64,000 bases of DNA from Yuukianura sp. NJ FZ-2021 (lineage: Eukaryota): assembly GCA_046563655.1 (NCBI GenBank), contig JAJCTO010000017.1:62001-126000 (forward strand), read 5' to 3'. The notes beneath the pieces were generated by a model. That model was not told the origin of the DNA. It saw only the letters and a program-made list of their open reading frames with translations, and made no database searches. The translations under genes were made by a program, and so were the position numbers. Positions 1 to 60,461 of this stretch are shown in pieces (the first letter of the stretch is position 1; every line of letters begins with the position of its first letter).

Positions 1-3000
1 AACACTTCAGATGGGCTTTCACAAGCATAATTTCGGTTTGCAGTTTTGACTCCTCAGATAGCCCAGAATGACTTTTTGGTGAGTTTTAAATGAAAAAAAT
101 GGATTTTACGGAGAAAAATTGAGCTTGGAACACTTCAGATCAGCTTTCAGAAGCATAATTTCGGTTTGCAATTTTGACTCCTCAGATAGCCCAGAATGAC
201 CTTTTGAAGAGTATTTAATGAAAAAAATGATTTTTTGGTGAAAAATTGAGTCTGGAACACTTAAGATGGGCTTTCACAAGCATAATTTCGGTTTGCAGTT
301 TTGACTCCTCAGATAGCCCAGAATGACTTTTTGGTGAGTTTTAAATAAAAAAAAATGGATTTCTCGAAGAAAATTGAGCTTGGAACACTTCAGATGGGCT
401 TTCACAAGCATAATTTCGGTTTGCAATTTTGACATCTCAGATAGCCCAGAATGACTTTTTGAAGAGTATTTAATGAAAAAAATGAATTTTTGGTGAAAAA
501 TTGAGCTTGGAACACTTCAGATGGGCTTTCAGAAGCATAATTTCGGTTTGCAATTTTGACTCCTCAGATAGCCCAGAATGACCTTTTGAAGAGTATTTAA
601 TGAAAAAAAAAATGATTTTTTGGTGAAAAATTGAGTCTGGAACACTTCAGATGAGCTTTCACAAGCATAATTTCGGTTTGCAATTTTGACTCCTCAGATA
701 GCCCAGAATGACTTTTTGGTGAGTTTTAAATGAAAAAAAAAATGGATTTTTCAGAGAAAAATTTAGCTTGGAACACTTCAGATTGGCTTTCACAAGCATA
801 ATTTCGGTTTGCAGTTTTGACTCCTCAGATAGCCCTGAATGACTTTTTGAAGAGTATTTAATGGAAAAAATGATTTTTTGGTGAAAAATTGAGCTTGGAA
901 CACTTCAGATGGGCTTTCAGAAGCATAATTTCGGTTTGCAATTTTGACTCCTCAGATAGCCCAGAATGACCTTTTGAAGAGTATTTAATGAAAAAAATGA
1001 TTTTTTGGTGAAAAATTGAGTCTGGAACACTTCAGATGGGCTTTCACAAGCATAATTTCGGTTTGCAATTTTGACTCCTCAGATAGCCCAGAATGACTTT
1101 TTGGTGAGTTTTAAATGAAAAAAATGGATTTTTCGGAGAAAAAGTGAGCGTGGAACACTTCAGATGGGCTTTCAGAAGCATAATTTCGGTTTGCAATTTT
1201 GACTCCTCAGATAGCCCAGAATGACTTTTTGGTGAGTTTTAAATGAAAAAAAATGGATTTTTCCGAGAAAAATTTAGCTTGGAACACTTCAGATGGGCTT
1301 TCAGAAGCATAATTTCGGTTTGCAATTTTGACTCCTCAGATAGCCCAGAATGACTTTTTGGTGAGTTTTAAATGAAAAAAATGGATTTTTCGGAGAAAAA
1401 GTGAGCGTGGAACACTTCAGATGGGCTTTCACAAGCATAATTTCGTTTTGCAATTTTGACATCTCAGATAGCCCAGAATGACTTTTTGAAGAGTATTTAA
1501 TGAAAAAAATGATTTTTTGGTGAAAAATTGAGTCTGGAACACTTCAGATGGGCTTTCACAAGCATAATTTCGGTTTGCAGTTTTGACTCCTCAGATAGCC
1601 CAGAATGACTTTTTGGTGAGTTTTAAATGAAAAAAATGGATTTTACGGAGAAAAATTGAGCTTGGAACACTTCAGATGGGCTTTCAGAAGCATAATTTCG
1701 GTTTGCAATTTTGACTCCTCAGATAGCCCAGAATGACCTTTTGAAGAGTATTTAATGAAAAAAATGATTTTTTGGTGAAAAATTGAGTCTGGAACACTTC
1801 AGATGGGCTTTCACAAGCATAATTTCGGTTTGCAGTTTTGACTCCTCAGATAGCCCAGAATGACTTTTTGAAGAGTATTTAATGAAAAAAATGATTTTTT
1901 GGTGAAAAATTGAGCTTGGAACACTTCAGATGGGCTTTCAGAAGCATAATTTCGGTTTGCAATTTTGACTCCTCAGATAGCCCAGAATGACCTTTTGAAG
2001 AGTATTTAATGAAAAAAAAAATGATTTTTTGGTGAAAAATTGAGTCTGGAACACTTCAGATGAGCTTTCACAAGCATAATTTCGGTTTGCAATTTTGACT
2101 CCTCAGATAGCCCAGAATGACTTTTTGGTGAGTTTTAAATGAAAAAAATGGATTTTTCAGAGAAAAAGTGAGCTTGAAACACTTCAGATGGGCTTTCACA
2201 AGCATAATTTCGGTTTGCAATTTTGACTCCTCAGATAGCCCAGAATGACTTTTTGAAGAGTATTTAATGAAAAAAATGATTTTTTGGTGAAAAATTGAGC
2301 TTGGAACACTTCAGATGGGCTTTCAGAAGCATAATTTCGGTTTGCAATTTTGACTCCTCAGATAGCCCAGAATGACCTTTTGAAGAGTATTTAATGAAAA
2401 AAAAATGATTTTTTGGTGAAAAATTGAGTCTGGAACACTTCAGATGGGCTTTCACAAGCATAATTTCGGTTTGCAGTTTTGACTCCTCAGATAGCCCAGA
2501 ATGACTTTTTGGTGAGTTTTAAATGAAAAAAAAATGGATTTTTCGGAGAAAAAGTGAGCGTGGAACACTTCAGATGGGCTTTCAGAAGCATAATTTCGGT
2601 TTGCAATTTTGACTCCTCAGATAGCCCAGAATGACTTTTTGGTGAGTTTTAAATGAAAAAAATGGATTTTTCGGAGAAAAATTTAGCTTGGAACACTTCA
2701 GATGGGCTTTCAGAAGCATAATTTCGGTTTGCAATTTTGACTCCTCAGATAGCCCAGAATGACTTTTTGGTGAGTTTTAAATGAAAAAAAATGGATTTTT
2801 CGGAGAAAAAGTGAGCGTGGAACACTTCAGATGGGCTTTCACAAGCATAATTTCGTTTTGCAATTTTGACATCTCAGATAGCCCAGAATTACTTTTTGAA
2901 GAGTATTTAATGAAAAAAATGATTTTTTGGTGAAAAATTGAGTCTGGAACACTTCAGATGGGCTTTCACAAGCATAATTTCGGTTTGCAGTTTTGACTCC

Positions 3001-5358
3001 TCAGATAGCCCAGAATGACTTTTTGGTGAGTTTTAAATGAAAAAAATGGATTTTACGGAGAAAAATTGAGCTTGGAACACTTCAGATGGGCTTTCAGAAG
3101 CATAATTTCGGTTTGCAATTTTGACTCCTCAGATAGCCCAGAATGACCTTTTGAAGAGTATTTAATGAAAAAAATGATTTTTTGGTGAAAAATTGAGTCT
3201 GGAACACTTAAGATGGGCTTTCACAAGCATAATTTCGGTTTGCAGTTTTGACTCCTCAGATAGCCCAGAATGACTTTTTGGTGAGTTTTAAATAAAAAAA
3301 AATGGATTTCTCGAAGAAAATTGAGCTTGGAACACTTCAGATGGGCTTTCACAAGCATAATTTCGGTTTGCAATTTTGACATCTCAGATAGCCCAGAATG
3401 ACTTTTTGAAGAGTATTTAATGAAAAAAATGATTTTTTGGTGAAAAATTGAGTCTGGAACACTTCAGATGAGCTTTCACAAGCATAATTTCGGTTTGCAA
3501 TTTTGACTCCTCAGATAGCCAGAATGACTTTTTGGTGAGTTTTAAATGAAAAAAAAAATGGATTTTTCAGAGAAAAAGTGAGCGTGGAACACTTCAGATG
3601 GGCCTTCACAAGCATAATTTCGGTTACAATTTTGACTCCTCAGATAGCCCAGAATGACTTTTTGAAGAGTATTTAATGAAAAAAAAATGATTTTTTGGTG
3701 AAAAATTGAGCTTGGAACACTTCAGATGGGCTTTCAGAAGCATAATTTCGGTTTGCAATTTTGACTCCTCAGATAGCCCAGAATGACCTTTTGAAGAGTA
3801 TTTAATGAAAAAAAATGATTTTTTGGTGAAAAATTGAGTCTGGAACACTTCAGATGGGCTTTCACAAGCATAATTTCGGTTTGCAGTTTTGACTCCTCAG
3901 ATAGCCCAGAATGACTTTTTGGTGAGTTTTAAATGAAAAAAATGGATTTTTCGGAGAAAAAGTGAGCGTGGAACACTTCAGATGGGCTTTCACAAGCATA
4001 ATTTCGTTTTGTAATTTTGACATCTCAGATAGCCCAGAATTACTTTCTGAAGAGTATTTAATGAAAAAAATGATTTTTTGGTGAAAAATTGAGTCTGGAA
4101 CACTTCAGATGGGCTTTCACAAGCATAATTTCGGTTTGCAATTTTGACTCCTCAGATAGCCCAGAATGACTTTTTGGTGAGTTTTAAATGAAAAAAATGG
4201 ATTTTTCGGAGAAAAAGTGAGCGTGGAACACTTCAGATGGGCTTTCAGAAGCATAATTTCGGTTTGCAATTTTGACTCCTCAGATAGCCCAGAATGACTT
4301 TTTGGTGAGTTTTAAATGAAAAAAAAAATGGATTTTTCAGAGAAAAATTTAGCTTGGAACACTTCAGATTGGCTTTCACAAGCATAATTTTGGTTTGCAA
4401 TTTTCACTCCTCAGATAGCCCTGAATGACTTTTTGGTGAGTTTTAAATGAAAAAAATGGATTTTACGGAGAAAAATTGAGCTTGGAACACTTCAGATGGG
4501 CTTTCAGAAGCATAACTTCGGTTTGCAATTTTGACTCCTCAGATAGCCCAGAATGACTTTTTGAAGAGTATTTAATGAAAAAAATGATTTTTTGGTGAAA
4601 AATTGAGTCTGGAACACTTCAGATGGGCTTTCACAAGCATAATTTCGGTTTGCAGTTTTGACTCCTCAGATAGCCCAGAATGACTTTTTGGTGAGTTTTA
4701 AATGAAAAAAAAATGGATTTTTCGGAGAAAAAGTGAGCGTGGAACACTTCAGATGGGCTTTCACAAGCATAATTTCGTTTTGCAATTTTGACATCTCAGA
4801 TAGCCCAGAATGACTTTTTGAAGAGTATTTAATGAAAAAAATGATTTTTTGGTGAAAAATTGAGCTTGGAACACTTCAGATGGGCCTTCACAAGCATAAT
4901 TTCGGTTACAATTTTGACTCCTCAGATAGCCTAGAATGACTTTTTGGTGAGTTTTAAATGAAAAAAATGGATTTTACGGAGAAAAATTGAGCTTGGAACA
5001 CTTCAGATGGGCTTTCAGAAGCATAATTTCGGTTTGCAATTTTGACTCCTCAGATAGCCCAGAATGACCTTTTGAAGAGTATTTAATGAAAAAAATGATT
5101 TTTTGGTGAAAAATTGAGTCTGGAACACTTCAGATGGGCTTTCACAAGCATAATTTCGGTTTGCAGTTTTGACTCCTCAGATAGCCCAGAATGACTTTTT
5201 GGTGAGTTTTAAATAAAAAAAATGGATTTCTCGAAGAAAATTGAGCTTGGAACACTTCAGATGGGGTTTCACAAGCATAATTTCGGTTTGCAGTTTTGAC
5301 TCCTCAGATAGCCCAGAATGACTTTTTGAAGAGTATTTAATGAAAAAAATGATTTTTT
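1..5358. repeat. 128-bp satellite DNA array (two monomer types, A and B)
   Basis: AACACTTCAGATGGGCTTTC recurs every ~128 bp (1, 129, ...). The shared core is followed by either GAAGAGTATTTAATGA7TGATTTTTTGGTG (type A) or GGTGAGTTTTAAATGA7TGGATTTTTCGGAG (type B). Confidence 0.98.
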
Positions 5359-5382
5359 TGGGTTTATTTTAGTTTCACAGTC

Positions 5383-5399
5383 ACCTGCCAAAGGCAGGT
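5383..5399 (-). other. 3' UTR stem-loop of CRE-A
   Basis: ACCTGCC-AAA-GGCAGGT perfect 7-bp stem. The same stem is present in CRE-B at 58504-58520. Confidence 0.75.
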
Positions 5400-5427
5400 T
5401 GAGAAAAGAAGTAGGATTTAAGTTAGA

Positions 5428-7038
5428 TTATAATATGAATAACTCGTAAAGATCTTTTCCTGAGGGTAAGGTTCCCAAGATTGAGCAGGAGTTTCCGCGT
5501 TGAACAGCTAGGCTTATTCGTTGTAGGAAGAAGGTCGTGGCTCGTTTATCTCCAGATGCTTCTGACAGCCGATGTCCGATTTGTTTTAGTAGACGAAGAC
5601 CTTCGGATCCGAATACACCTGATGTCTCGACGGCAATGATGGATACGACGAAGCGAGATTCTAGGTCACGATAGAGATGATGTTTGTGTGTCTCTGCTAA
5701 TTCGGCTGCATGACCATAGCGGGAAGACGATGTCGAAAGGTAGGAATTTGCATAAGTGTCACGGCAGGTAAAGTCCCAGCAGAGGCAGCGTCCTGAGCTC
5801 CAAGGAATGAGAGTAACACCATCTGGCCGTTTGCCATCGGATCTGCTGCAGCCGACAGGTTCTTTAATTGAAGGAAATCCAGCGGTTTGTAATGCTCTGA
5901 AGATTATGTCGTTGACTGAGTTGTGACGCGAGTGTCTTCCGGCGCTACGCTTACAGCTTAAACCGTGGAGACCGTTACTTGACACCGGAGCACCGCACGA
6001 GCAGATATGAGGTTGGCATATATCAGTTCCTAGGCGAAGAGCACAAGAAATCCTAAAAGATTCGTCCGAAAGTAGAGTTCCAAGTTGTCCGGAGGGAATT
6101 GCGTGTAACCAATCTCCAGAATGTGGTGCAGCGGCAGCCAGTAGTCTTGCTTTGTCGATAAGGGTTGAAGAGTTCTGAACTAGGGAAGAAGAAATTTGCT
6201 TAAAGACTTGAATTTCCCAGAGGTTTTGAGATTTTTTGTCCTGTGGAATAACGAAGCCCAATTGAGACCAGTTGAACAAAGCCAAATCCATTGAATTGTC
6301 GAAGGGTGACAGGGAAGACGGCAGAAATGTAGAAATTAGCTCCGCACAACTATGGACTGATGCCAAAAACGAAAATGTAGCGCAGTCCTTAGCGTGGCGA
6401 ACTCCTAATCCGCCCAAGTTCACCGGTAGACTTAACTGAGACCAAGCGTGTGAAGACAAAGTAGAATTGAGAATCGATTCCATCACTGCACGTAGTGCAC
6501 AGTCGTATTCATCGAGAAGGTCGGTTTCCAGAAACGAAGGAGCACATCTGAGAAAATATAGGAGGCTTGGGGTGGAAATTGAAGCTCGAAGCAGGTAGAA
6601 CGCAATGTGGGCAGGTATGTCCGACAACTTAGATGAGAGTGACTTGAAGTTCTCTGTTTTGCATTTGAGAATCCGACGAGACGATTCTTTGAAAAGAGGC
6701 GCTCCTAGAAGTTCAGCTTGATCATAATCAGGGAAGATGATGTCTGGAGAAACAGATTGGAATGATTGGACGATTGAGCGGGACTCAATTGCTTCTGCAC
6801 TTAGAATGAAGACTTCACATTTTCTTAGGTTAAGTTCTAGTCCAAACGAAGAGGCTTCTCTTTGGATGTATTTGAGATTTTCGAGAACGACATCCGGAGT
6901 ATCGGCAATCGTTGCGTCATCTAAATACCAGATGTTGACATCAGTGGATAATGAAGAGGCCAATTGGTGGATGGTTAAAGCGAAAAGAGCAGGACCAAGG
7001 GGATCCCCTGTTGCACTCCTAGTTTCGATTTGATGCAA
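5428..7038 (-). CDS. CRE-A ORF, C-terminal part: RT catalytic core, thumb, zinc knuckle and RLE endonuclease
   Basis: GDPLGP, WYLDD, GLELNLRKC, LPVNLGGLG, CSCG..HGLSC, RH, RPDG, WDFT, K..LY. Confidence 0.9.
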   Translation of the reverse strand: MHQIETRSATGDPLGPALFALTIHQLASSLSTDVNIWYLDDATIADTPDVVLENLKYIQREASSFGLELNLRKCEVFILSAEAIESRSIVQSFQSVSPDIIFPDYDQAELLGAPLFKESSRRILKCKTENFKSLSSKLSDIPAHIAFYLLRASISTPSLLYFLRCAPSFLETDLLDEYDCALRAVMESILNSTLSSHAWSQLSLPVNLGGLGVRHAKDCATFSFLASVHSCAELISTFLPSSLSPFDNSMDLALFNWSQLGFVIPQDKKSQNLWEIQVFKQISSSLVQNSSTLIDKARLLAAAAPHSGDWLHAIPSGQLGTLLSDESFRISCALRLGTDICQPHICSCGAPVSSNGLHGLSCKRSAGRHSRHNSVNDIIFRALQTAGFPSIKEPVGCSRSDGKRPDGVTLIPWSSGRCLCWDFTCRDTYANSYLSTSSSRYGHAAELAETHKHHLYRDLESRFVVSIIAVETSGVFGSEGLRLLKQIGHRLSEASGDKRATTFFLQRISLAVQRGNSCSILGTLPSGKDLYELFIL

Positions 7039-10000
7039 GCAGAGTCGTAGTAGAGATCTGAATCGTGCGAATAAGCTTCAGAGACGAATTTGTAGAAGTC
7101 TGGAAGTATGGTCTTCACAATGTCCAGCATACGGTCTCTTCTAATTAAGTTGAAGGCATTGCGAAAGTCCATCTTGAGTAGAACCTTGGCAGAACCATGG
7201 TTGGCATTACAGAAGATTCTGGCAGCGTGGGCGACGGCTTCAGCACCATTCTTGATTCCAACGCCAACTTGGATCGGGCTTAAGGTTGAAGTAATGACAT
7301 TCAACGAGTGAGATAGGATAAGTTTAGACACGAGGCGTCTCCAAGTAAGGCCGATTGCGATAGGACGAATGCCTCCATTCTTCTTTTGGATTGCTAATAG
7401 AGTTGCGCCAAAAAAAATTCGTCTCACTTCATCGGGAAGAGAACCATTTGTAATGAAGTTACACAATCCAGAAACTGATGCTAGAAGAGCTTCTCCTTCA
7501 TCGCCTGAGGACTTTGAAGTTAGTTCCTTTAGAATCTGTGGACGAAAAGAGTCCAGGCCTCCGGCGGATCCATTTGGGAATGACGAGATGGCTTTGATGA
7601 CGTGACAGTTTTCAAAGATAACCTCAGATCTCGGAGGTGCGGCAGGAAACGAGGTTGGTAGTGGATGATCGGGATGCAATTGGTGGAGAATGTTCAAAGT
7701 ATCAGAGTCTTTGGAGGCTATGCAATCTTCGGAGACCAGGATTCGAACTGCACCGCGTATATCCCCGTCGGCTAGTTTAGATTGAATGACCTTTGAGGAG
7801 TTACAGTGATGTGAGGACGGATGATGGCCACGAGAGAATTGCTTGAATTGATGATGGGAGATGTTTGCAGGCGCCTCAGAAGTGATACGGCTAGCGTTTG
7901 TCTTCACCCATTTGGTTAGATTTGTGACAGCATCGTCTTTTGACGGAATGGGAAAAACTTGGTAGGGGAAGTAGAATAACTTTGCCCAAGAATCTGTAGA
8001 GTTGTGCTCGATTGCTTGGTCGATGATGGTGGACAGGGCAGAGGCGGTCGTTCTTCTTGCTCCTTTTGGAATGTGTTTGAGTGTGGACGTAGATTTTCTT
8101 AAGTCAGCAAGCTTTAGCCCAAGAGAAGTTGTAGAGATATCTTCATTGGAAGGAGCGGACCAAGTGATGTCGAAGTAAGATTGTTGAGAATGTTTGCGTC
8201 CGCCGGCTCGTGTTTTGGTAATGTTTGGAAAAGCTTTTAATAGTTTCAATCCAATTGTCGCGTCGGCTAAAGGTTTGATCTTCACATCAGAGCAAAAAGA
8301 ATGGTATTTATCTTTTAGATCTTGTTTCTTGATCAAAGCTCCAGAAGCCTCCTGAATGTTGTTCTTGATCCAGTCGTCAGTTAGTTTAGAAATTTGTGAT
8401 TTTGTTAAACACTCGGATGAGAAGCTGGAATCTGCTTCATTGGTAGCACGAACTGGTGAAAAGTTGGAAGCGTCATCATTGGTAGCACGAACTGATGAAA
8501 AGTTGGGAGCAGCTTCATTGGTAGCACGAGCTGATGAAAAGTTGGAAGAGTCTTCGTTGGCAGCAGTATCTGATGAAAAGTTGGAAGCGTCTTCATTTGT
8601 AGCACGAACTGATGAAAAGTTGGAAGCAGCTTCGTTGGTAGCACGAACTGATGAAAGTTTGGAAGCATCTTCATTGGTAGCACGAGCTGATGAAAAGTTG
8701 GAAGCGGCTTCGTTGGCAGCAGTAACTGATGAAACGTTGGAAGCGTCTTCATTTGTAGCACGAACTGATGAAAAGTTGGAAGCAGCTTCGTTGGTAGCAC
8801 GAACTGATGAAAAGTTGGAAGCGTCTTCATTGATAGCAGGGACTGATGAAAAGTTGGGAGCGGCTTCATTGGTAACACGAACTGATGAAAAGTTGGAAGA
8901 GTCTTCGTTGGCAGCAGTATCTGATGAAAAGTTGGAAGCGTCTTCATTTGTAGCACGAACTGATGAAAAGTTGGAAGCAGCTTTGTTGGTGGCACGAACT
9001 GATGAAAGTTTGGAAGCATCTTCATTGGTAGCACGAGCTGATGAAAAGTTGGAAGCGGCTTCGTTGGCAGCAGTAACTGATGAAAAGTTGGAAGCGTCTT
9101 CATTTGTAGCACGAACTGATGAAAAGTTGGAAGCAGCTTCGTTGGTAGCACGAACTGATGAAAAGTTGGAAGCGTCTTCATTGATAGCAGGGACTGATGA
9201 AAAGTTGGGAGCGGCTTCATTGGTAACACGAACTGATGAAAAGTTGGAAGCGTCTTCATTGATAGCAGGGACTGATGAAAAGTTGGGAGCGGCTTCATTG
9301 GTAACACGAACTGATGAAAAGTTGGAAGAGTCTTCGTTGGCAGCAGTATCTGATGAAAAGTTGGAAGCGTCTTCATTTGTAGCACGAACTGATGAAAAGT
9401 TGGAAGCAGCTTTGTTGGTGGCACGAACTGATGAAAGTTTGGAAGCATCTTCATTGGTAGCACGAGCTGATGAAAAGTTGGAAGCGGCTTCGTTGGCAGC
9501 AGTAACTGATGAAAAGTTGGAAGCGTCTTCATTTGTAGCACGAACTGATGAAAAGTTGGAAGCAGCTTCGTTGGTAGCACGAACTGATGAAAAGTTGGAA
9601 GCGTCTTCATTGATAGCAGGGACTGATGAAAAGTTGGGAGCGGCTTCATTGGTAACACGAACTGATGAAAAGTCGGAAGAGGTTTTGCTGGCAGCAGGAA
9701 CTGATGAAAGTTTGGAAGCATCTTCATTGGTAGCACGAACTGATGAAAAGTGGGAAGCGTCTTTGTTGTTTGTTGAAGCAGAAGCACCGGAATCGAAGTG
9801 ATTTGATGTTGTAGAAGTTGCCATGGAAATTGATTTCATTTTACTTCGATTTCTTAATTTTCGCTGCATCGTAATTGTTGCTATGGAGATGAAGTGAAGG
9901 TTGAATGTAGTTGTTGAAAACTTTGTAACTGTTGAAGGAGCGAATGTGACTGGGGGTCCAAGTGACGAAACAGGTCCGCTAAGGCCGGATTGGTCACGTA

Positions 10001-10061
10001 ATTTTGTGAAACTTATCACAAGTTGACCAGCACAACTAGCTCTGCCAGATGATATGAGCAA
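6975..10061 (-). CDS. CRE-A ORF, N-terminal part: 13-aa repeat region, RFX-like winged helix, RT domains 0-4 (first ATG at 9869; frameshift at ~7005-7008)
   Basis: RT motifs SAGGLDSFRP, GIRPIAIG, QVGVG, DFRNAFN, GVQQG. One G is missing from CAG GGG GAT CCC (QGDP), shifting the frame into the next ORF. Confidence 0.88.
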   Translation of the reverse strand: MLISSGRASCAGQLVISFTKLRDQSGLSGPVSSLGPPVTFAPSTVTKFSTTTFNLHFISIATITMQRKLRNRSKMKSISMATSTTSNHFDSGASASTNNKDASHFSSVRATNEDASKLSSVPAASKTSSDFSSVRVTNEAAPNFSSVPAINEDASNFSSVRATNEAASNFSSVRATNEDASNFSSVTAANEAASNFSSARATNEDASKLSSVRATNKAASNFSSVRATNEDASNFSSDTAANEDSSNFSSVRVTNEAAPNFSSVPAINEDASNFSSVRVTNEAAPNFSSVPAINEDASNFSSVRATNEAASNFSSVRATNEDASNFSSVTAANEAASNFSSARATNEDASKLSSVRATNKAASNFSSVRATNEDASNFSSDTAANEDSSNFSSVRVTNEAAPNFSSVPAINEDASNFSSVRATNEAASNFSSVRATNEDASNVSSVTAANEAASNFSSARATNEDASKLSSVRATNEAASNFSSVRATNEDASNFSSDTAANEDSSNFSSARATNEAAPNFSSVRATNDDASNFSPVRATNEADSSFSSECLTKSQISKLTDDWIKNNIQEASGALIKKQDLKDKYHSFCSDVKIKPLADATIGLKLLKAFPNITKTRAGGRKHSQQSYFDITWSAPSNEDISTTSLGLKLADLRKSTSTLKHIPKGARRTTASALSTIIDQAIEHNSTDSWAKLFYFPYQVFPIPSKDDAVTNLTKWVKTNASRITSEAPANISHHQFKQFSRGHHPSSHHCNSSKVIQSKLADGDIRGAVRILVSEDCIASKDSDTLNILHQLHPDHPLPTSFPAAPPRSEVIFENCHVIKAISSFPNGSAGGLDSFRPQILKELTSKSSGDEGEALLASVSGLCNFITNGSLPDEVRRIFFGATLLAIQKKNGGIRPIAIGLTWRRLVSKLILSHSLNVITSTLSPIQVGVGIKNGAEAVAHAARIFCNANHGSAKVLLKMDFRNAFNLIRRDRMLDIVKTILPDFYKFVSEAYSHDSDLYYDSACIKSKLGVQQGIPLVLLFSL
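8160..8381 (-). other. RFX-type winged-helix DNA-binding domain within CRE-A ORF
   Basis: TDDWIKNNIQEASGALIKKQDLKDKYHSFCSDVKIKPLADATIGLKLLKAFPNITKTRAGGRKHSQQSYFDITW aligns without gaps to the RFX DBD pattern W-l--n-----G--l-r--l---Y---C------P-----fG------F-----rR-G-Rg-S---Y--i (alignment by eye). Confidence 0.75.
8415..9765 (-). repeat. In-frame 39-bp coding minisatellite (~34-35 copies of NFSSVRATNE[A/D]AS)
   Basis: CTGATGAAAAGTTGGAAGC recurs every 39 bp on the + strand. A 9-unit higher-order block occurs about three times. Confidence 0.97.
9817..9830 (-). promoter_or_regulatory. RFX X-box-like motif ATTTCCATGGCAAC
   Basis: Matches the X-box consensus RTHNYYWTRRNRAC at all 14 positions and contains an in-frame ATG (MATST). 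Confidence 0.55.
9877..9890 (-). promoter_or_regulatory. RFX X-box-like motif ATCTCCATAGCAAC
   Basis: Matches RTHNYYWTRRNRAC. It lies exactly 60 bp from the first motif and just upstream of the first ATG (9869). Confidence 0.55.
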
Positions 10062-10147
10062 AAGGAGGATAGTTCACTAAGTAAAGCCTAAAAAAACTGA
10101 AAAATGTGGAGCGAATTTTTCGTGACTTTCTAAATTTTTAATTTTTT

Positions 10148-10929
10148 TGATTTTTTGGTGAAAAATTGAGCTTGGAACACTTCAGATGGGCTTTCAGAAG
10201 CATAATTTCGGTTTGCAATTTTGACTCCTCAGATAGCCCAGAATGACTTTTTGAAGAGTATTTAATGAAAAAAATGATTTTTTGGTGAAAAATTGAGTCT
10301 GGAACACTTCAGATGGGCTTTCACAAGCATAATTTCGGTTTGCAGTTTTGACTCCTCAGATAGCCCAGAATGACTTTTTGGTGAGTTTTAAATGAAAAAA
10401 AAAATGGATTTTTCGGAGAAAAAGTGAGCGTGGAACACTTCAGATGGGCTTTCACAAGCATAATTTCGGTTTGCAGTTTTGACTCCTCAGATAGCCCAGA
10501 ATGACTTTTTGGTGAGTTTTAAATGAAAAAAATGGATTTTACGGAGAAAAATTGAGCTTGGAACACTTCAGATGGGCTTTCACAAGCATAATTTCGTTTT
10601 GCAATTTTGACAACTCAGATAGCCCAGAATTACTTTTTGAAGAGTATTTAATGAAAAAAAAAATGATTTTTTGGTGAAAAATTGAGTCTGGAACACTTCA
10701 GATGTACTTTCACAAGCATAATTTCGGTTTGCAGTTTTGACTCCTCAGATAGCCCAGAATGACTTTTTGGTGAGTTTTAAATGAAAAAAATGGATTTTAC
10801 GGAGAAAAATTGAGCTTGGAACACTTCAGATGGGCTTTCAGAAGCATAATTTCGGTTTGCAATTTTGACTCCTCAGATAGCCCAGAATGACCTTTTGAAG
10901 AGTATTTAATGAAAAAAATGATTTTTTGG
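10148..10929. repeat. 128-bp satellite array (continued)
   Basis: About 6 monomers, same orientation. Confidence 0.97.
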
Positions 10930-11148: not shown

Positions 11149-11240
11149 GAAACAAGTGATCTTTTTCTTTAACAGAAAACAGATTGAAATCTAAAGGTTT
11201 TTGAGTAACACTTTTAACGAGTGAAAGTCAAAATTGTGAA

Positions 11241-13013
11241 ATGGCATCTAACTCTGGTTCATCGTCAAATATGACAATTTACCAAACACGAAAGTTTGAC
11301 ACAGCGTCAATCACCAAGTTGAATGGTGATAATTATCGGGTTTGGCGGATGAGGCTGACTAGTCTCTTTGAAACTCATAAAGTGATGGACATTGTGGATG
11401 GTTCCAAAGTGAGACCAACGACTTCCGGGGCTGAGCAAGAAAAATGGGACCTTGGAAACAACGAAGCAGTCACTACGATGCTTCTGAGCATGGCCGATAC
11501 AGAGGTAGACTCTGTTTCGGGCTGTAAAACGGCAGCTCAAATATGGACTAAATTATCATCAATCTACGAGAGCGTAAGTGGGGAATCTAAGCAAGCCCTC
11601 TGGCAGAAATATTACGGTGTTTCTACGGGCCCCGGGAAAAATGCTCTGAAAGCGATGATAGAGATCCAAAATTATGCATCCCAATTACGGTCAATTGGAG
11701 CGACGGTAGAAGAAGATTCTGAGGTGGCCCGAATCCTCTCGAGTCTTGTCGAAGACAAGTATCGCCATTTCCGCGAGGCATGGCGATCAGTGGACACTAA
11801 GAAGCAGACCACTGCTCTCCTCCTTTCTCGTCTAAAAACGCTAGAATTGGAGGAGGTGGAGACCAAAAATGCCAAAAAGGACTTGGGAGAAAGTTCAAAA
11901 GCTTTCACTGTCAATAAGCAGAGAAAGCAGATGAAATCCAAAGAAGAAATGGATGAGCTGAAAAAGCGTACTAAATGCCACGTTTGTAAGTCACTTGGGC
12001 ACTGGAAAAGTGAGTGCCCAGAAAAAGCAAAAACCCAGCGTCCGACTGATCCTGCCAAGAAAAATGGTGAAAGTCCAAAAGGAGCTTACATGGCCGGAGG
12101 GGGTTTTTTGGAAAACGACTGGATCAACGACTCAGGAGCGGATCGACATTATTGTGGTCGCCGTGAATGGTTTTTTGAATACGAAAAGTATTCAAAACCA
12201 AGACCTGTCACTATTGCCGATAATTCAACGATGGATGCTATTGGCGTGGGGAAAGTGAGAGTGAAAGCCCTGATCAAAAATCAGTGGCGGGAAATTGAAA
12301 TACACAATGTCGTGCATATTCCGGGTGGGGCAAACCTTCTGTCGGAAAACGTTCTTCTCCAGAAGGGATTTAAAGTGAGTAAATCTCACGGTAAAATTAC
12401 GTATTTTCGAGAAGGAGAGGAGGACATCCAGGCTGAACAGAAGGATGGAGTTCAAGTGATGTTGTTTAGACCTGTTCCAAACCAAGCCTTAGCCTGTGTA
12501 AAACAAGCTATTTGGCATAAGAGACTCGCCCATGTGAATTGCGAATTTTTGAAGAAAACCGCAGAAAAACAGGCAGTTTACGGTCTGGAAAATATGAAAT
12601 TAGAAAAAGTGGTGTGCGAATCTTGTCTTCTGGCGAAGTCAACCCAACAAAGCTACAAAACCACTGAAAAACAACGAGATTACGCTGTTGGTGAATGCCT
12701 ACACGCTGACCTTGCCCACGCCACTGCATTTTCACACAGAGGAAATAAGTACTTTCTCGTGGTGAAAGACGAAGGAAGCAGTTTCCGCCAGGTTTACCTT
12801 CAGAAAACGAAGGATCAAACCGTAAACAACATGAAAGACGCAATCAACTTCATTTCCAACCAAACCGGAAATTCGGTGAAAATTTTTCGATCCGATAATG
12901 GCTCAGAATTCTGCACAGGAGTTTTAAGGACTTTCTCTCAGAAAAAGGGATTCAGTTTGGGCTTAACGCTCCATACACAAGCCAAAGTAATGGGTTTGTT
13001 GAAAGGGAAGTGA
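11241..13013 (+). CDS. gag-pol: Copia Gag, protease and integrase N-terminal part (frameshift at ~12915-12925)
   Basis: KLNGDNYRVW, CCHC knuckle CHVCKSLGHWKSEC, protease WINDSGA, WHKRLAH..CESC, HADL, RSDNGSEF. Confidence 0.93.
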   Translation: MASNSGSSSNMTIYQTRKFDTASITKLNGDNYRVWRMRLTSLFETHKVMDIVDGSKVRPTTSGAEQEKWDLGNNEAVTTMLLSMADTEVDSVSGCKTAAQIWTKLSSIYESVSGESKQALWQKYYGVSTGPGKNALKAMIEIQNYASQLRSIGATVEEDSEVARILSSLVEDKYRHFREAWRSVDTKKQTTALLLSRLKTLELEEVETKNAKKDLGESSKAFTVNKQRKQMKSKEEMDELKKRTKCHVCKSLGHWKSECPEKAKTQRPTDPAKKNGESPKGAYMAGGGFLENDWINDSGADRHYCGRREWFFEYEKYSKPRPVTIADNSTMDAIGVGKVRVKALIKNQWREIEIHNVVHIPGGANLLSENVLLQKGFKVSKSHGKITYFREGEEDIQAEQKDGVQVMLFRPVPNQALACVKQAIWHKRLAHVNCEFLKKTAEKQAVYGLENMKLEKVVCESCLLAKSTQQSYKTTEKQRDYAVGECLHADLAHATAFSHRGNKYFLVVKDEGSSFRQVYLQKTKDQTVNNMKDAINFISNQTGNSVKIFRSDNGSEFCTGVLRTFSQKKGFSLGLTLHTQAKVMGLLKGK

Positions 13014-13255
13014 GAATTGAGCGAGAAGCGGCAAGAGCAATGCTAATTGAATCGGGATTGGGCGAGGAACACTGGGATGATGCGATTATTACAGCATGTT
13101 ATGTTTTGAATCGAACCTTATCCTCTAAAAATCGGGAGAAAACCCCGTTTGAATTAATTTTCAAGAAAAAGCCATCACTTCATCATGTTCGTGTTTTTGG
13201 GTCAAAAGCCTTTGCGCATGTCATGACTGGAGGGGAAGAAGAAGTGGGAAGCTAA
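13010..13255 (+). CDS. pol: Copia integrase C-terminal fragment (this frame extends upstream to ~12925: KGIQFGLNAPYTSQSNGFVER)
   Basis: ARAML, W.DA..TACYVLNR, TPFE, RVFGS. Confidence 0.85.
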   Translation: MRIEREAARAMLIESGLGEEHWDDAIITACYVLNRTLSSKNREKTPFELIFKKKPSLHHVRVFGSKAFAHVMTGGEEEVGS

Positions 13256-13259
13256 GTCG

Positions 13260-14447
13260 GTGGAGTGTATTTTGGTTGGGTTTAACGCCTCAAACAAAAA
13301 TTTCATCCCTTATGTACCAGCAGAAGGAAGGTACATCGAACAGGCGAAACACGTTCAATTCATTGAAACTATGGAAAAAGCTGTTCAAAAAGAAAGTGAA
13401 GCTGCGATTGAACAAAATGTAAAATCTTGTTCGACAAATGACGATGAAATGCAGTACTTAGATGAGGACAACTTAATTCCTTTTGGTTCACTTTCAATTG
13501 AAGAATTTCTTTCAAAAGAAGAGAATCCTTCTGAAAAAGGTTTAAGTCCCTCCCCCAAAAGGCCGAATCCAACAGTAAAAAGTGGAAACCAGAGCGATCA
13601 TGAGTCATCCCAGAGGAGTTGGGCAGAAGAAATTGAGGATGAGGAGGACGAAGGTCCAGTGGGACAGCGGAGATCCACAAGAATTAAAAAGCCTGTGGAG
13701 AGATTTCAAGCTGGATTCTCCGCCCTTTATGGAAATCGAATTTCGGAGCCTTCGAATTTTCAAGAAGCGATGAATTCTGACAATTCTGCCGAATGGACAG
13801 ACGCTATGGAGGCGGAGTTGCGCAGTCAACAGGAAAGTGAGACTTGGGTTCTTGTAAAAAGGCCCAACAAGACAAGAATACTTAAAAACCGATGGGTTTT
13901 TAAAGTAAAGAATAATCCGGACGGATCCTTGAATAAATTCAAAGCCCGGCTTGTGGTGAAAGGTTTTCACCAGATTCAAGGAGTGGACTATGAGGAGACA
14001 TTTGCGCCAGTATGCAGGTACGAGACCGTGAGAATCATGTTGAGTCTCGCAGCGGCGGAAGCGTGGGATGTTAAGCAACTTGACATCGCCACTGCTTTCC
14101 TCAACAGCCCGTTAAATGAAGAGTTATTCATGGAACAACCTCAGGGGTTTGAAATTGGTGACGGACTTGTTTGCAAATTACAACGCGGACTTTATGGGTT
14201 GAAGCAAGGCCCGCGTGCATGGAATGTGACCATCAATGCAAAATTGGTGGAAATGGGATTTCAAGCACTGGAAAGTGACCCGTGTGTGTACAAAAAGGAA
14301 AGGAAAAAGTCAGTGACCTTTATTGTACTGTTCGTTGATGATGGCCTAGTTCTTGGTGATTCATCAGAGGAAAATGAAGAAGAAGTGAAGGAGCTAGCAA
14401 AACATTCAAAGTCTCCATGCAGCCACTCGATAAATTTCTTGGAATAG
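13260..14447 (+). CDS. pol: Copia integrase tail, linker and reverse transcriptase
   Basis: EPSNFQEA, RWVFKVK, KARLVVKGF.Q, ETFAPV, LDIATAFL, LYGLKQ, FVDD. Confidence 0.92.
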   Translation: MECILVGFNASNKNFIPYVPAEGRYIEQAKHVQFIETMEKAVQKESEAAIEQNVKSCSTNDDEMQYLDEDNLIPFGSLSIEEFLSKEENPSEKGLSPSPKRPNPTVKSGNQSDHESSQRSWAEEIEDEEDEGPVGQRRSTRIKKPVERFQAGFSALYGNRISEPSNFQEAMNSDNSAEWTDAMEAELRSQQESETWVLVKRPNKTRILKNRWVFKVKNNPDGSLNKFKARLVVKGFHQIQGVDYEETFAPVCRYETVRIMLSLAAAEAWDVKQLDIATAFLNSPLNEELFMEQPQGFEIGDGLVCKLQRGLYGLKQGPRAWNVTINAKLVEMGFQALESDPCVYKKERKKSVTFIVLFVDDGLVLGDSSEENEEEVKELAKHSKSPCSHSINFLE

Positions 14448-15961
14448 AAATCAAAAAGAATGAAAAAGGAATTTTCATACACCAGCAAAAATACATCAAA
14501 GATACTCTTCTGCGATTTAAAATGTCAGAGTGCAAAACTGCTGACATTCCAATGAACCCAGGACTACAATTGGAAGCCAGTCGATCCGCTGACACCAATT
14601 ATGAATTTCGAGAGCTAATTGGGTCGCTTCTATTTTTGGCCCGATGTACTCGGCCTGACATCGCGTATCCAGTGCACTATTTGGCAAGATTTTTTTCAAA
14701 TTTCGAAAAGTCACATTTTGATGCAGCCAAGAAAATACTGCAGTACCTAAAAGGAACCATGGACCTTGGAATTCATTACGAAAGGTCAGAAGAAGGTCAA
14801 ATCATTTTTGGCTTTGTTGACGCCGATTATGGGTCCGACAAAAATTCGCGAAAATCGACGACCGGATGCTTGTTCACTGCCAATGGTTCGCCAATCGTTT
14901 GGATTAGCAAGCGTCAAACCTGTATTGCACTTTCAAGCACTGAAAGTGAATACATAGCCTTGGCCCACGCAGGGAAAGAAGCTATTTGGGTCACGCGGAT
15001 GTTTAGAGAATGTGGAATTACAGGAGCAATTGAAGATGGAATTTGTCTTAAGACAGATTCTCAGAGCGCGATAAAACTCGCGCGTTATCCTGAATACCAC
15101 GACAAAACTAAACATATCGACATCAGGCACCACTACATAAGATGGCTGGTGGAACGGAAACTCGTCAGTCTTGAACATCTTCCAGATCAAGCACAACCTG
15201 CTGATATCTTAACCAAATCAGTTCCAAAAGCAACTTTTGTCAAAAAGAGGTATCTGATGGGAATGGAGACTAATCCGAGTGAAAGTTCCAAGCGAAAAGC
15301 ACTGTCGAGTGTAGTAGTAGTTCCTAAAAGACCAAATGTGGCACTTAGCATTTTGAGTCTCATGCTCACTGTCTTAACGATAGGTGGAGCCACCGACGTC
15401 TACAAAACCGGTAGTCCGGTTTTATGGAGAAAAAGCCTTGATCCAGTGATCACAGGTTTCCAGGCGGTCACGATGAAAACTAAATTAATTTCTCCGTGTG
15501 ACCTAATGCCCTTAACGGGCATTGATCCACTCTTAGCCAATTTCATGAAAGAACGTTGTGAAAAGAGTTACGAAGAGATTTTTTTGAACAACCTTGAAAA
15601 GATCTGTCCCAGAAAGGCAGAAGTCGGCAAGAAAAACAAACGGGAAATTTTTTTGGCAATTGGCTTTGTCCTTATTGTGGCTTTAGCAAGCGTCGGCATT
15701 GGACTGGGCGGCTTTGCTGTTTCCAGGACTTATGAAATTGAAACAAAGGTCGACGAATTAAAGGAAGCCCTCAACGAGCTCGAAAGAAAAGTCTTTGTAA
15801 ATGAAAAAGAGATCGAAATCCTGCAAAAGGAAATTCGAAAACTGGCCTCAGAAGTTGACAAATTGGGAAACGATTTTTCACTGTTCCGAGAGGAGGTGGT
15901 GGAATTACAGTACATAATTTCTCACCTCATCAACAGATTTATGGAGGGAAACGGACCCTGA
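14417..15961 (+). CDS. pol: Copia RT C-terminus and RNase H fused in-frame to the N-terminal half of an env-like protein
   Basis: TRPDI, VDADY, SSTESEY, DSQSA, KHIDIR, ADILTK. With no stop, the frame continues into a hydrophobic signal-like segment, KKNKR followed by a hydrophobic peptide, and a heptad repeat. Confidence 0.9.
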   Translation: MQPLDKFLGIEIKKNEKGIFIHQQKYIKDTLLRFKMSECKTADIPMNPGLQLEASRSADTNYEFRELIGSLLFLARCTRPDIAYPVHYLARFFSNFEKSHFDAAKKILQYLKGTMDLGIHYERSEEGQIIFGFVDADYGSDKNSRKSTTGCLFTANGSPIVWISKRQTCIALSSTESEYIALAHAGKEAIWVTRMFRECGITGAIEDGICLKTDSQSAIKLARYPEYHDKTKHIDIRHHYIRWLVERKLVSLEHLPDQAQPADILTKSVPKATFVKKRYLMGMETNPSESSKRKALSSVVVVPKRPNVALSILSLMLTVLTIGGATDVYKTGSPVLWRKSLDPVITGFQAVTMKTKLISPCDLMPLTGIDPLLANFMKERCEKSYEEIFLNNLEKICPRKAEVGKKNKREIFLAIGFVLIVALASVGIGLGGFAVSRTYEIETKVDELKEALNELERKVFVNEKEIEILQKEIRKLASEVDKLGNDFSLFREEVVELQYIISHLINRFMEGNGP

Positions 15962-15977
15962 AAGAGACTGGCTCGGC

Positions 15978-16970
15978 TTGGCACAGAGGAAGCTTACCGC
16001 TGACCTCTTCGAATATCTCAACTTTACCCTGCCCTGTGGTGACGAGTGCCCAATCGAGTATGGGATTTGTCATCACTGTGAAATGAGTCATGCCAGGGAC
16101 GAGATTGTCATGGAATTCGCATTACCCTCTGTCAACAAAAGTCTCACACGCGTCGAAGCAGATCCGTTCACTCTGATGCTCAAAAACAAAACTCATACTT
16201 GTGAGTTGAAATACGCTGGACCAACGTTAGCCACAGTGTCAGTAGATGATGACTGTGTGTATGAAACCCACAAGGAGCGACCAAGGAGCAACCTGGAATT
16301 GGCTACACTTTCGAATTGCAAAAACAGTTCGTCGTTTAAAGCTGTAGACCATTACTTTAAACTGGATGGATGTCGTTTACCGGGAGACGGTGACACGAAA
16401 GAATTCATTCAAGTTAAGTTCAACGATAACGAATACTACATTTACTGCTCAGGAAGACAGTATTCCATAAAGAAGCGGAACATCGAGTGTCTTCCGAACG
16501 TATTCTCTCTGCCGTTGTCGCTGACGTTTCACCTGAATGATGTCGAATACAAGGGAAACGTTCTTCAAATGATTTTTAGGGAGCGGGAAGACCCTTTCCT
16601 AAAAGATCATATTAATTGGCATCTCAACCCCCACATTAATTGGAAAAATATATCTGGGGAGTTGGACGCATTTTGGAATGACAACAAGCGGAACATCGAG
16701 GAGGAATCTAAAACTGTAAAAGTTTTTGAATTCCATCGCCATGCTGCTGCTAACTGGACCTGGATACTTGGGGGGACAGTCACTGGAATTCTGCTTGGAA
16801 TTTTGACAGCAATTCTTGTGCGCAGGCGCTGCGCAAAGAAGAAGAGCGGGAAACGTGTAAAGGCTGATTCCAAAAAGGAGCGGGAGGAGATCCCTCTTCA
16901 AGAAGTGGAAAAACCAGCCGGAGATGAAGAGGATCACAGTGGAACTCACCACTGCATTATTATACAATAG
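15978..16970 (+). CDS. env: env-like glycoprotein, C-terminal half (Cys-rich ectodomain, TM anchor, basic cytoplasmic tail)
   Basis: Many Cys, N-glycosylation sequons (NFT, NKS, NKT, NSS, NIS, NWT), TM segment WILGGTVTGILLGILTAILV followed by RRRCAKKK; ends 18 bp before the 3' LTR. Confidence 0.8.
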   Translation: MAQRKLTADLFEYLNFTLPCGDECPIEYGICHHCEMSHARDEIVMEFALPSVNKSLTRVEADPFTLMLKNKTHTCELKYAGPTLATVSVDDDCVYETHKERPRSNLELATLSNCKNSSSFKAVDHYFKLDGCRLPGDGDTKEFIQVKFNDNEYYIYCSGRQYSIKKRNIECLPNVFSLPLSLTFHLNDVEYKGNVLQMIFREREDPFLKDHINWHLNPHINWKNISGELDAFWNDNKRNIEEESKTVKVFEFHRHAAANWTWILGGTVTGILLGILTAILVRRRCAKKKSGKRVKADSKKEREEIPLQEVEKPAGDEEDHSGTHHCIIIQ

Positions 16971-42400: not shown

Positions 42401-42424
42401 TTTACGTGGTTTATGTATCTGAGC

Positions 42425-43947: not shown

Positions 43948-43964
43948 TTTCGGTACTCAAGAGG

Positions 43965-58462: not shown

Positions 58463-60461
58463 TATTTTTATTGTCGCGAACTGTGATGAAAGATACAACT
58501 TACACCTGCCATTGGCAGGTTGAGAGATTTAAGAAGGACGTTAATGATTAAAGCATGTAGATTTCGTAGAGTTCTTTTCCGGGTGGTATGGTTCCCAATA
58601 TAGAAGTACTGTTTCCTCGCTGAATGGCGAGACTGATGCGTTGAAATAGGAAGGAACTTGCTCGATTGTCACCAGTGGCTTCTGAGAGGCGATGTCCAAT
58701 TGAATTGAGTAGACGTAAGCCTTCTTCTCCGTAAACTCCAGTTGTCTCCACTGCGATGATGGAAACGAAAAATCGACAATCAAGGTCACGGTAGATGTCA
58801 TGTTTTTGGATTTCAGCTAAGGCGGCAGGATGACCACGGCATGAAGATGATGTTGGTAGGTAAGATGCGGCAAATGTATCACGACAGGTGAAATCCCACG
58901 CAAGGCATCGACCGGACTTCCAAGGGACTAGAGTAACGCCATCCGGTCTCTTGCCGTCAGTTCTGGAACAACCGGAGGGTTCCTTGATGCAAGGGATGCC
59001 TGCTGTCCGAAGAGATCTGGAGATAATGTCGTTCACTGAAGCATGTCTTGCTTGTCTTCCTGCGCTTCTGGTGCAGCTTAATCCATGCAAACCATCACTC
59101 GAAACTGAAACTCCGCAAGGGCAGCGATGTTGTTGACAAATTTCAGTTCCTAAGCGGACAGCACAGGATATTCGGAAGTGTTCGTCGGCTAGGAGCGTTC
59201 CCAGTGGGGGGATGGAATAGCATGTAGCCAATCACCAGAGTGAGGGGCACAAACAGCGAGCAGACGGGCCTTGTCAGTCAGATTGGAGGAGTTTTGGACC
59301 AATTGAGAGTAAATTTGATTGAAAAGCTGCATTTCCCATCGTTTTTGAATTTTGCCGTCTATTGGTGTTTCGAACCCCATTTCGGACCAATTGAGAGAAG
59401 CGATATCCATGGAGGCGTCAAAAGGTGACAGATGAGATGGTAGAAAGGTAGAGATTAATTCGGCACAACTATTGACTGAGGCCAAAAACGAAAAAGTAGC
59501 ACTGTCAACTGCATGGCGAATACCTAAACCCCCTTGATTCACCGGCAATGAAGACTGGGACCAGGCTTCTTCAGTCAAATTTGAATTGAGGATTGATTCC
59601 AATACGTTGCGTAAAGATGAGTCATATGTTGAAAGAAGGTCAGTTTCCAGGAATGATGGAGAGCATCTGAGGAAATATAATAGTCTTGGAGTGGATACTG
59701 ATGCCCGAAGTAGGAAGAACGCTATATGGGCAGGAAGAGACGACAGTTTTGAGGATAGTGACTTGAAATCTTCTGTCTTCGATTTGAGAATACGTCGTGA
59801 AGAATCTCTGAAAAGAGGGGCACCCAAGAGTTCCGCTTGCTCCTTATCAGGAAACATAAAGTCAGGATAAATTGAGTGGAAGGCGTCGGAGATCAAAGTT
59901 TTTTCTGTCGTATCAGCAGATAGAATAATTACTTCACATTTCTTCATGTTTAGATGTAATCCAAATGAAGAGGCATTAGATTGGATCATTTTGAGATTTT
60001 CCAGTACAATGTCAGGAGAGTCAGCGATAGTTGCGTCATCTAAGTACCATGAATTCAATTCTGTAGTTAAAGATGAGGCTAGTGGATGAACGGTTAAGGC
60101 GAAAAGCGCAGGTCCCAGTGGGTCACCTTGTTGGATGCCTAACTTTGATTTGATACAGTTGGAATGGTGGAACAGGTCTGTTTCGATGGAATAAGCTTGA
60201 GAGACGAAATTAAAGAAATCCGGGAGATGGTATTTGACAGTTTTCAGCATCTGGTCCCTTCGGATGAGATTGAAGGCATTTCGAAAATCCATCTTCACGA
60301 GGAGTGATTGGCGTTGCAGTAGATTCTGGCGGCATGGGCGACAGCTTCAGCTCCGTTCTTGACGCCGACACCTACTTGAATTGGACTCAACACGGACGTG
60401 ATAACGTTCATCGAGCGAGCAAGGATTAGTTTTGAAACAAGACGTCTCCATGTGAGGCCGA
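58463..60461 (-). mobile_element. CRE-clade RLE non-LTR retrotransposon, 5'-truncated (CRE-B)
   Basis: 8-bp TSD TGGAAAAT (58455-58462 and 60462-60469); truncated at IGLTWRR inside the RT; AATAAA at the 3' end; protein collinear with CRE-A. Confidence 0.93.
58548..60461 (-). pseudogene. CRE-B RT and RLE in three frameshifted pieces (60295-60461, 59189-60298, 58548-59231)
   Basis: QVGVG, DFRNAFN, QQGDPLGP, WYLDD, CPCG..HGLSC, RH, RPDG, WDFT. Confidence 0.9.

Follow-up and report, generated by a model that had tools for sequence, protein, structure and literature searches.

An RFX-type winged helix in place of the zinc finger/Myb region of an R2-like retrotransposon

Long interspersed nuclear elements (LINEs) that carry a restriction-like endonuclease (RLE), such as R2, serve as a model for site-specific retrotransposition and are under engineering for transgene insertion, and the site at which they insert depends on an N-terminal DNA-binding slot. 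What, then, is an RFX-type winged helix, the DNA-binding domain of a transcription factor family, doing in that slot? The question is raised by a stretch of 64,000 nucleotides from Yuukianura sp. NJ FZ-2021 (assembly GCA_046563655.1, contig JAJCTO010000017.1, positions 62,001 to 126,000; hereafter the window), in which positions 5360–10147 hold a young, essentially intact, RLE-type early-branching non-LTR (LTR, long terminal repeat) retrotransposon with an RFX domain ahead of its reverse transcriptase (RT). The fusion of RFX and RT recurs in springtails and in environmental sequences, which argues that this is a real, and apparently undescribed, DNA-gripping design for R2-like elements.

By profile and by fold, the segment is a genuine RFX-type winged helix. 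The peptide quoted in the initial annotation is encoded on the minus strand as claimed, with the annotated span of 8160–8381 narrowing slightly to 8163–8381 for the match to Pfam family PF02257. A 107-residue segment scores 45.3 bits against this profile (E = 1.4e-11, profile positions 4–76 of 79, curated cut-off 27 bits), and the whole open reading frame (ORF) piece scores 40 bits, with the match at ORF residues 565–637. Searching PDB sequences with phmmer gives ungapped alignments to RFX5 (8zjr_M, E = 7.8e-8) and to the RFX1 DNA-binding domain (DBD; 1dp7_P, E = 0.0029). An AlphaFold2 (AF2) model of the segment, built with eight relatives (mean predicted local distance difference test score, pLDDT, 77.4), has the order H1-b1-H2-H3-b2-wing-b3, with Foldseek returning RFX5 (E = 7.2e-6, TM 0.87) and RFX1 (E = 4.5e-5, TM 0.89), both at a root mean square deviation (RMSD) of 1.3 Å, as the only PDB matches at E <= 0.001 and a third match at E = 0.23; the resemblance to the RFX DBD first noticed in the residue spacing extends to the predicted structure. 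Taken together, the profile and fold matches identify the domain as RFX proper, neither a generic winged helix nor of the D5/primase type. The D5/P4-primase-like alternative offered in the initial annotation finds no support, as the segment has no Pox_D5 match and the sole primase-type chain in the fold search has an E-value of 0.82.

Residues W17, K32, Y39, G57, F64, and R71 are invariant in nine element RFX domains and align with W4, R19, Y26, G44, F51, and R58 of RFX1 (1dp7), and the wing motif R-x-G-x-R followed by S and Y is also kept, with G73, R75, S78, and Y82 equivalent to G60, R62, S65, and Y69 of RFX1. On binding DNA, RFX domains insert W1, the wing, into the major groove, whereas the minor groove is occupied by H3, with nine DNA-contact residues nearly invariant across RFX1–7, according to the available sections of PMC2533330. 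In the element, the positions of RFX1 residues K66, Y67, and H68 are taken by Q, Q, and S, and owing to these differences in the wing the site read by the element RFX domain may not be an X-box.

The domain shares its ORF with an RT, a CCHC motif, and an RLE, in agreement with the earlier assignment to a retrotransposon protein, and opens, after its start, with a 13-residue unit repeated 34.6 times, which is followed by RFX, an N-terminal extension, RT, CCHC, and RLE in that order (Table 1). Only the start codon (9869–9867) and the 39-bp array encoding the repeat lie upstream of RFX. The piece of the ORF that holds RFX is a minus-strand frame open from 10073 to 6975, which ends near a break at 7004/7005; at this point the contigs of three public sequencing runs (X1, X2, and X3) all have one additional letter, at full depth, and their ORF is continuous, so the frameshift in the window either belongs to this copy alone or arose in assembly. 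Runs X1 and X2 derive from one sample, with X3 carrying a different organism label and coming from a different study. The position "just upstream" of the RT originally given to the domain is roughly right, but ~258 residues of conserved extension lie between the end of RFX and residue 895, where the Pfam RVT_1 match begins. The ORF has the hallmark layout of the RLE type, comprising an RT with a YxDD motif, a linker, a Cys/His motif, and a C-terminal PD-(D/E)xK-type endonuclease, but not its N-terminal zinc finger/Myb region, the slot of which is filled by RFX. At E-values up to 10, Pfam matches in the window ORF are limited to RFX_DNA_binding, RVT_1, and a spurious IL11 match in the repeat region, with no zinc finger, Myb, or PHD among them; both the absence of an N-terminal C2H2 finger and the replacement of the zinc finger/Myb slot, as originally proposed, are therefore upheld for this copy. 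A zinc finger/Myb/-1 region is described in all early-branching LINEs in the available part of a 2017 study (PMC5678591).

Table 1. Positions of the element, its parts, and its surroundings in the window.
Feature	Positions	Strand	Basis and remarks
Full-length non-LTR (RLE-type) retrotransposon, ~4.79 kb	5360..10147	-	Interrupts 128-bp satellite; Tandem Repeats Finder (TRF) arrays at both flanks and junctions read
Upstream target-site duplication copy, AAAAAATCA	10148..10156	-	Junction read against uninterrupted satellite
Downstream target-site duplication copy, AAAAAATCA	5350..5358	-	Junction read
Single ORF, ATG 9869–9867 to TAA 5430–5428	5428..9869	-	Interrupted where a G-run at 7004/7005 is one letter short
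Tandem array of a 39-bp unit, in frame, 34.6 copies	8416..9763	-	TRF; encodes NEDASNFSSVRAT-like repeats over ~450 residues, on the N-terminal side of RFX
RFX-type winged-helix DNA-binding domain	8163..8381	-	Pfam PF02257, PDB phmmer, AF2 model and Foldseek
Tether and conserved N-terminal extension, TLKHIPKGAR at 8055–8084	7392..8162	-	Region common to RFX-less siblings
Reverse transcriptase core, YLDD at 6916–6927	6784..7391	-	Pfam RVT_1 on both ORF pieces
Cys/His motif CQPHICSCG...H...C, before the endonuclease	5992..6018	-	No variation at C798, H810 or C814 among 45 relatives
Restriction-like endonuclease core, KRPDG ... WDFT ... K	5671..5832	-	Motif residues; P0004 model follows R2Bm at its C-terminus, as far as residue 1107
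3' untranslated region (UTR) stem-loop/palindrome, ACCTGCC-TTT-GGCAGGT	5383..5399	-	In 72-nt 3'UTR; 7-bp arms
128-bp satellite (target array)	1..5357, 10149-10926, 17200-40602, 43967-45513, 48780-49598	.	TRF (127/128-bp period)
Second copy, sister subfamily, 5'-truncated, without RFX part	58470..60461	-	~73% amino-acid identity; inside ~510-bp satellite

The fold of the whole protein was approached through P0004 (988 residues), the closest relative among the matches listed, with 55% identity over 858 kept alignment columns. Its model, built with 44 relatives, has a mean pLDDT of 92.3 and a predicted TM-score (pTM) of 0.86, and the top seven Foldseek matches are R2 proteins (E = 5e-23 to 5.5e-19), followed by LINE-1 ORF2p and Prp8. 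Alignment with VIA-align 2 superposes residues 188–980 of the model on residues 305–1107 of R2Bm (Z 16.7–18.6, ~700 residues) and residues 120–984 on residues 270–1169 of the R2Tg entry 9nl3_A, with Z-scores of 16.6–18.6 over 699–750 residues for all R2 entries, from the RT through the linker and the endonuclease. Residues 98–250, which are helical, align with the regions ahead of the RT in R2 and in L1 ORF2p. At the N-terminus, residues 1–79 align with RFX5 (Z 12.6, RMSD 1.4 Å) and with the RFX1 DBD (Z 12.4, RMSD 1.3 Å, 76 of 76 residues). Residues 82–87 have pLDDT values below 50, and the RFX module therefore appears to be flexibly tethered at the place where R2 has its zinc finger and Myb domains.

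A search with ORF residues 545–1032 found 142 relatives, 120 of which are listed. Precomputed Pfam annotation places PF02257 and PF00078 together in nine of the 120, and a hidden Markov model (HMM) of the element RFX domains finds ten (P0004, P0005, P0006, P0007, P0008, P0010, P0014, P0015, P0021, and P0024), along with two of 80 metagenome loci (L002 and L010), the flanks of which contain no tandem repeats detectable by TRF. The springtail Folsomia candida, with three RFX-bearing clusters, is the sole named organism among the RFX-bearing relatives listed, and one of its entries is automatically named "RFX-type winged-helix domain-containing protein"; tardigrade proteins are also present among the listed relatives. 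A Pfam scan of 30 relatives gives the architectures PHD-RFX-RT (P0005, P0006, P0007, and P0014), SAP-PHD-RFX-RT (P0021), and RFX-RT (P0004, P0010, and P0024), such that a PHD finger directly precedes RFX in five of the ten RFX proteins. The N-termini of siblings ahead of the shared TLK(H/R)xPKGAR extension are of C2H2-like, CxxC-HxHG, PHD-only, OTU, and UCH types, with many metagenome relatives carrying a CxxC...HxHG...C motif before the PKGAR extension.

An RT tree was calculated with FastTree from 78 rows, comprising the window protein (with X at the break) and those 77 of the proteins P0004–P0100 that reach 750 residues or more, with the alignment columns used beginning at the PKGAR motif and running to the end; shorter proteins and P0101–P0123 were left out. 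All 11 RFX rows fall inside one 18-row clade with a local support of 99, and the RFX label requires four changes on the tree against a mean of 9.6 when shuffled, with none of 500 shuffles as low. The presence of the fusion in several relatives and metagenome loci, within one well-supported RT clade, shows that it is no one-off chimera, an outcome that would have undone the initial annotation.

A scan of 1.84 billion representatives shows that the nearest cellular RFX domains are mostly of the RFX5/RFX7 type, with RFX5_N found in 12 and BCD_RFX in one of 41 look-alike proteins scanned. A tree of RFX domains only (117 domains, 78 columns) leaves the branching unresolved, and fits a single origin or several origins of the element domains. 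Short element-type ORFs (P0148, P0150, P0156, and P0167) are present among the representatives of the RFX search, word-based protein searches for longer proteins with this type of RFX returned none bar a single yeast RFX protein, and the ESM Atlas gave no usable match. The same material includes proteins of ~870–1090 residues (P0124–P0131) with four or five tandem RFX DNA-binding domains, an architecture that is not known to have been described.

The insertion itself can be read at both ends. The uninterrupted satellite at the target reads ...CACC-AAAAAATC(C)A-TTTTTTTCATT, and in the sense of the element the junctions run from ...CACC-AAAAAATCA into the element at 10147, through to ...AAAATAAACCC at 5360, and then into A-AAAAAATCA-TTTTTTTCATT. 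A duplication of 9 bp thus marks a precise break within a satellite monomer, with an extra A at 5359, beside the downstream copy of the duplication, being either tail or part of the duplication. The target-site duplication, the lack of LTRs, and a 5'-truncated second copy are all traits of RLE-type LINEs. Both copies inserted at an A-run/T-run, namely A7-TCA-T7 for one and an A/T-rich site duplicated over ~18 bp for the other, a likeness which, with n = 2, is only a lead. Six public runs with matching sequence are listed, with no RNA run among them, and their contigs are short and do not tell whether every copy of the subfamily adjoins the 128-bp satellite; loose ends at the 3' junction in these contigs lead into uninterrupted satellite, or into a variant 3' tail from 5373.

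We consider it likely on balance that RFX fills the target-DNA-binding slot of an R2-like element and positions the endonuclease, a role suggested by the position of the slot, the swapping of domains among siblings, the long retention of the domain, and the known biochemistry of both parts. The element would most likely be copied by target-primed reverse transcription, in which the RFX domain, held on its short flexible linker, would bind duplex target DNA through the wing and thereby place the endonuclease, with the nick in the target followed by complementary DNA (cDNA) synthesis primed on the 3'UTR RNA of the element itself. We infer that the domain binds the target rather than the element's own nucleic acid or chromatin, target recognition being one of the two roles, along with autoregulation, put forward in the initial annotation; which site would be read, and that the family is active, are likewise matters of inference.

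Several observations weigh against this assignment. The 128-bp satellite also hosts a Copia element, two piggyBac-like copies, and a Bel/Pao element, and its occupation by other classes of transposable element (TE) means that the satellite location says nothing about the specificity of the RFX element. A single full-length insertion of the RFX element was examined, and the truncated sister copy sits in a different satellite (510-bp rather than 128-bp). A scan with the canonical X-box, using the consensus GTNRCC N0-3 RGYAAC, gives no match in the 128-bp or the 510-bp satellite. Mean pairwise identity among six RFX elements is 0.33 for RFX, compared with 0.21 for the tether, 0.44 for the extension, 0.48 for the RT, and 0.56 for the CCHC and RLE together, so the RFX domain evolves faster than the RT or the RLE. 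Seven rows in the RFX clade of the tree have no detectable RFX, five of which have an actual or possible C2H2-like N-terminus, the other two being truncated; the RFX-less rows include P0016, a five-row group (P0009, P0011, P0012, P0013, and P0028), and the N-terminally truncated P0017 and P0018, with a C2H2-like pattern matched in P0009, P0011, and P0012. The tree is, moreover, a FastTree reconstruction only, with warnings on composition and long branches.

Three other explanations of the domain have to be set beside target binding. RFX may bind the nucleic acid of the element itself, either at X-box-like sites in the 39-bp array, as a form of promoter autoregulation, or at the 3'UTR palindrome in the form of DNA, an RNA stem, or cDNA. 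The only near-matches to the X-box in the 64 kb do fall in the 39-bp array of the element (GTTGGCAGCAGTAAC, 10 of 11 specified positions, at 8712, 9063, and 9492); however, these three are copies of one repeat unit and hence effectively one occurrence, which is chance level given a mean of 0.83 in shuffled sequence. The palindrome, with its 7-bp arms and 3-nt spacer, has the geometry of an X-box and follows the stop codon in both copies in the window. Its RNA fold has a z-score of -4.1, with none of 200 shuffles folding equally well, and its arms are conserved in the second copy (58504–58520, ACCTGCC-NNN-GGCAGGT), where the stem is kept and the loop changed. Against this, each half matches just four of six positions of an X-box half-site, and the palindrome is found in none of the 3' ends of 30 metagenome relatives examined, none of which is known to carry RFX; one of the metagenome loci (L034) has a different 7-bp stem at its 3' end. 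In R2, furthermore, it is the RT and the N-terminal extension that grip the template RNA, and not the DNA-binding slot, according to the available part of PMC5678591. Self-binding by RFX is improbable in our estimation. The conserved palindrome is probably an RNA handle for the RT.

Alternatively RFX, often together with a PHD finger, may act as a chromatin tether that docks the ribonucleoprotein (RNP) on nucleosomes or heterochromatin and so directs integration to a region and not to a specific site. The PHD finger directly before RFX in P0005, P0006, P0007, P0014, and P0021, the last also with SAP, would suit such a tether, as would the best structural match, which by its entry title is RFX5 in a nucleosome-bound complex, and the residence of both window copies in satellite arrays. 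Yet the window element, P0010, and P0024 carry RFX without PHD, the location is uninformative in a satellite shared with other TE classes, and the precise break in the monomer with its duplication fits placement of the endonuclease by a DNA-bound module; we regard a tethering role as doubtful, to much the same degree as self-binding. That RFX is a functionless passenger, or that the ORF is an annotation or assembly chimera of a host RFX gene and a LINE, could draw on the frameshift in the window copy and on the lower conservation of RFX than of any other folded part. This explanation is largely refuted, and very improbable, given that RFX shares one uninterrupted frame with the N-terminal half of the RT, that runs X1, X2, and X3 have contigs free of the frameshift, that contigs of all three runs span 7655–8400 continuously, and that the fusion recurs in independent sources at 34–47% identity with the core residues of RFX retained.

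Target binding by RFX could be taken further, with the RFX-bearing elements seen as naturally re-targeted, site-specific R2-like elements, in which the winged helix would read a short palindrome, here A7-TCA-T7 in the 128-bp satellite. RFX would then join zinc fingers and Myb as a third kind of LINE targeting module, with a single capture from a host factor of the RFX5/7 sort as its origin. We think this extension unlikely as it stands; if true, the insertion address would be set by the fast-evolving wing of the RFX domain.

The setting of the element is a TE-rich, heterochromatin-like block. The 128-bp satellite has a higher-order period of 255/258 bp and is very abundant, with a summed contig depth in run X1 ~1000 times that of the RFX element. 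The second satellite, with a period of ~510 bp and 95–99% identity between units, occupies 54587–58469 and 60462–64000 and houses the truncated LINE copy. Two units of ~3.3 kb (40602–43967 and 45513–48780), separated by satellite, each carry a piggyBac-type transposase ORF (DDE_Tnp_1_7, E = 1e-50) along with internal 54-bp and 49/147-bp repeats. A Ty1/copia element (11205–16970, plus strand; gag, integrase, and RVT_2) and a Bel/Pao element (49544–54107, plus strand; Peptidase_A17 and DUF5641) lie in or beside the 128-bp satellite. Within the RFX element, the 39-bp array encodes 13-mers rich in Ser, Asn, and Asp, and could be a disordered region or a set of promoter monomers; repeats ahead of RFX are also seen elsewhere, with 22-residue N-terminal tandem repeats in P0024 of Folsomia and Pro-rich repeats in P0014. 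Further afield, the 3' ends of metagenome loci L028, L048, L051, and L001 run straight into (TA)n, (TAA)n, or A-runs, which fits microsatellite targeting or non-templated tails. Numerous RT relatives with 26–36% identity (P0076–P0123) come from the Asteraceae (Tanacetum, Helianthus, Mikania, Tagetes, and Smallanthus) and from Apium, and point to a lineage of RLE-type LINEs in such plants.

Full-text literature searches found no description of an RFX or winged-helix domain inside a retrotransposon, and no name for the RFX-bearing lineage. The novelty claimed in the initial annotation holds as far as these searches reach, but the architecture was already visible through automatic database annotation, and an inventory of mostly arthropod elements with RT and RLE by Fell et al., mentioned in a 2026 review (PMC13580325), may include RFX-bearing ones. 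A clade in which RFX has been swapped in, often beside a PHD finger, shows that the DNA-binding slot is modular in nature, and the RFX module is small, belongs to a DNA-binding family with solved structures, and has a specificity that could be measured and compared with insertion sites. The fusion is of clear interest to specialists in transposons and genome engineering. DNA-binding domains of RFX-family transcription factors are rarely met in retroelements, and the present case bears on the movement of such domains between hosts and transposons.

Among known systems, the RFX transcription factors (RFX1–8), which bind the X-box, share the family, the fold, and the core residues W, Y, G, and F with R-x-G-x-R. 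The element differs from them in lacking RFX5_N and the B, C, D, and dimerisation domains, and in being fused to a retrotransposon enzyme. The RT-CCHC-RLE layout is common to the element and to CRE, NeSL/Utopia, HERO, and R4/Dong. Trypanosomatid members of the CRE clade (CRE1, CRE2, SLACS, and CZAR) insert in spliced-leader RNA genes, a target not seen here, where the copies lie in 128-bp and 510-bp satellites; this is weak evidence against the CRE placement of the initial annotation, at most a provisional one, the trait not being universal in CRE, and named CRE elements are absent from the protein search matches listed. Repeated DNA, for instance rRNA genes and microsatellites, is where most RLE LINEs integrate, according to the abstract of PMC4640811. 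The N-terminal modules described for other RLE clades are zinc fingers with or without Myb (available parts of PMC5678591 and PMC7650587), and literature searches found no report of RFX in CRE, NeSL/Utopia, HERO, or R4/Dong elements. The "R2-like", non-site-specific BLAG elements of Blattella germanica are likewise arthropod RLE LINEs that fall outside R2 proper; they have no Myb, and a region peculiar to their lineage separates the RT from the N-terminal module, with a relative noted in tardigrades. They differ in having a "Blag" motif along with CCHH fingers, one or two in number, with no RFX reported in the available part of the source (PMC7650587), and by eye this motif, as given there, bears no likeness to the TLKHxPKGAR extension.

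R2 itself is the closest comparison in structure. The window element is not R2 proper, with just 15–18% identity to solved R2 proteins (phmmer E ~1e-8, over the RT only), and a place in the R2 clade proper is rejected on this identity together with the satellite target and the lack of zinc finger and Myb domains. Where R2 has zinc fingers and Myb, the element has an RFX winged helix, where R2 targets 28S rDNA, the element lies in a satellite, and no HDV-like ribozyme is found at the element, a search of 5200–10400 with Rfam giving no family at E-values up to 1. In common with the R2 elements R2Bm, R2Tg, and that of Platysternon megacephalum, for which complexes in target-primed reverse transcription have been solved, the single-ORF protein follows the layout of DNA-binding slot, N-terminal extension, RT, linker, Cys/His motif, and RLE, and in common with R2 the element is inserted into tandemly repeated DNA with a short duplication.

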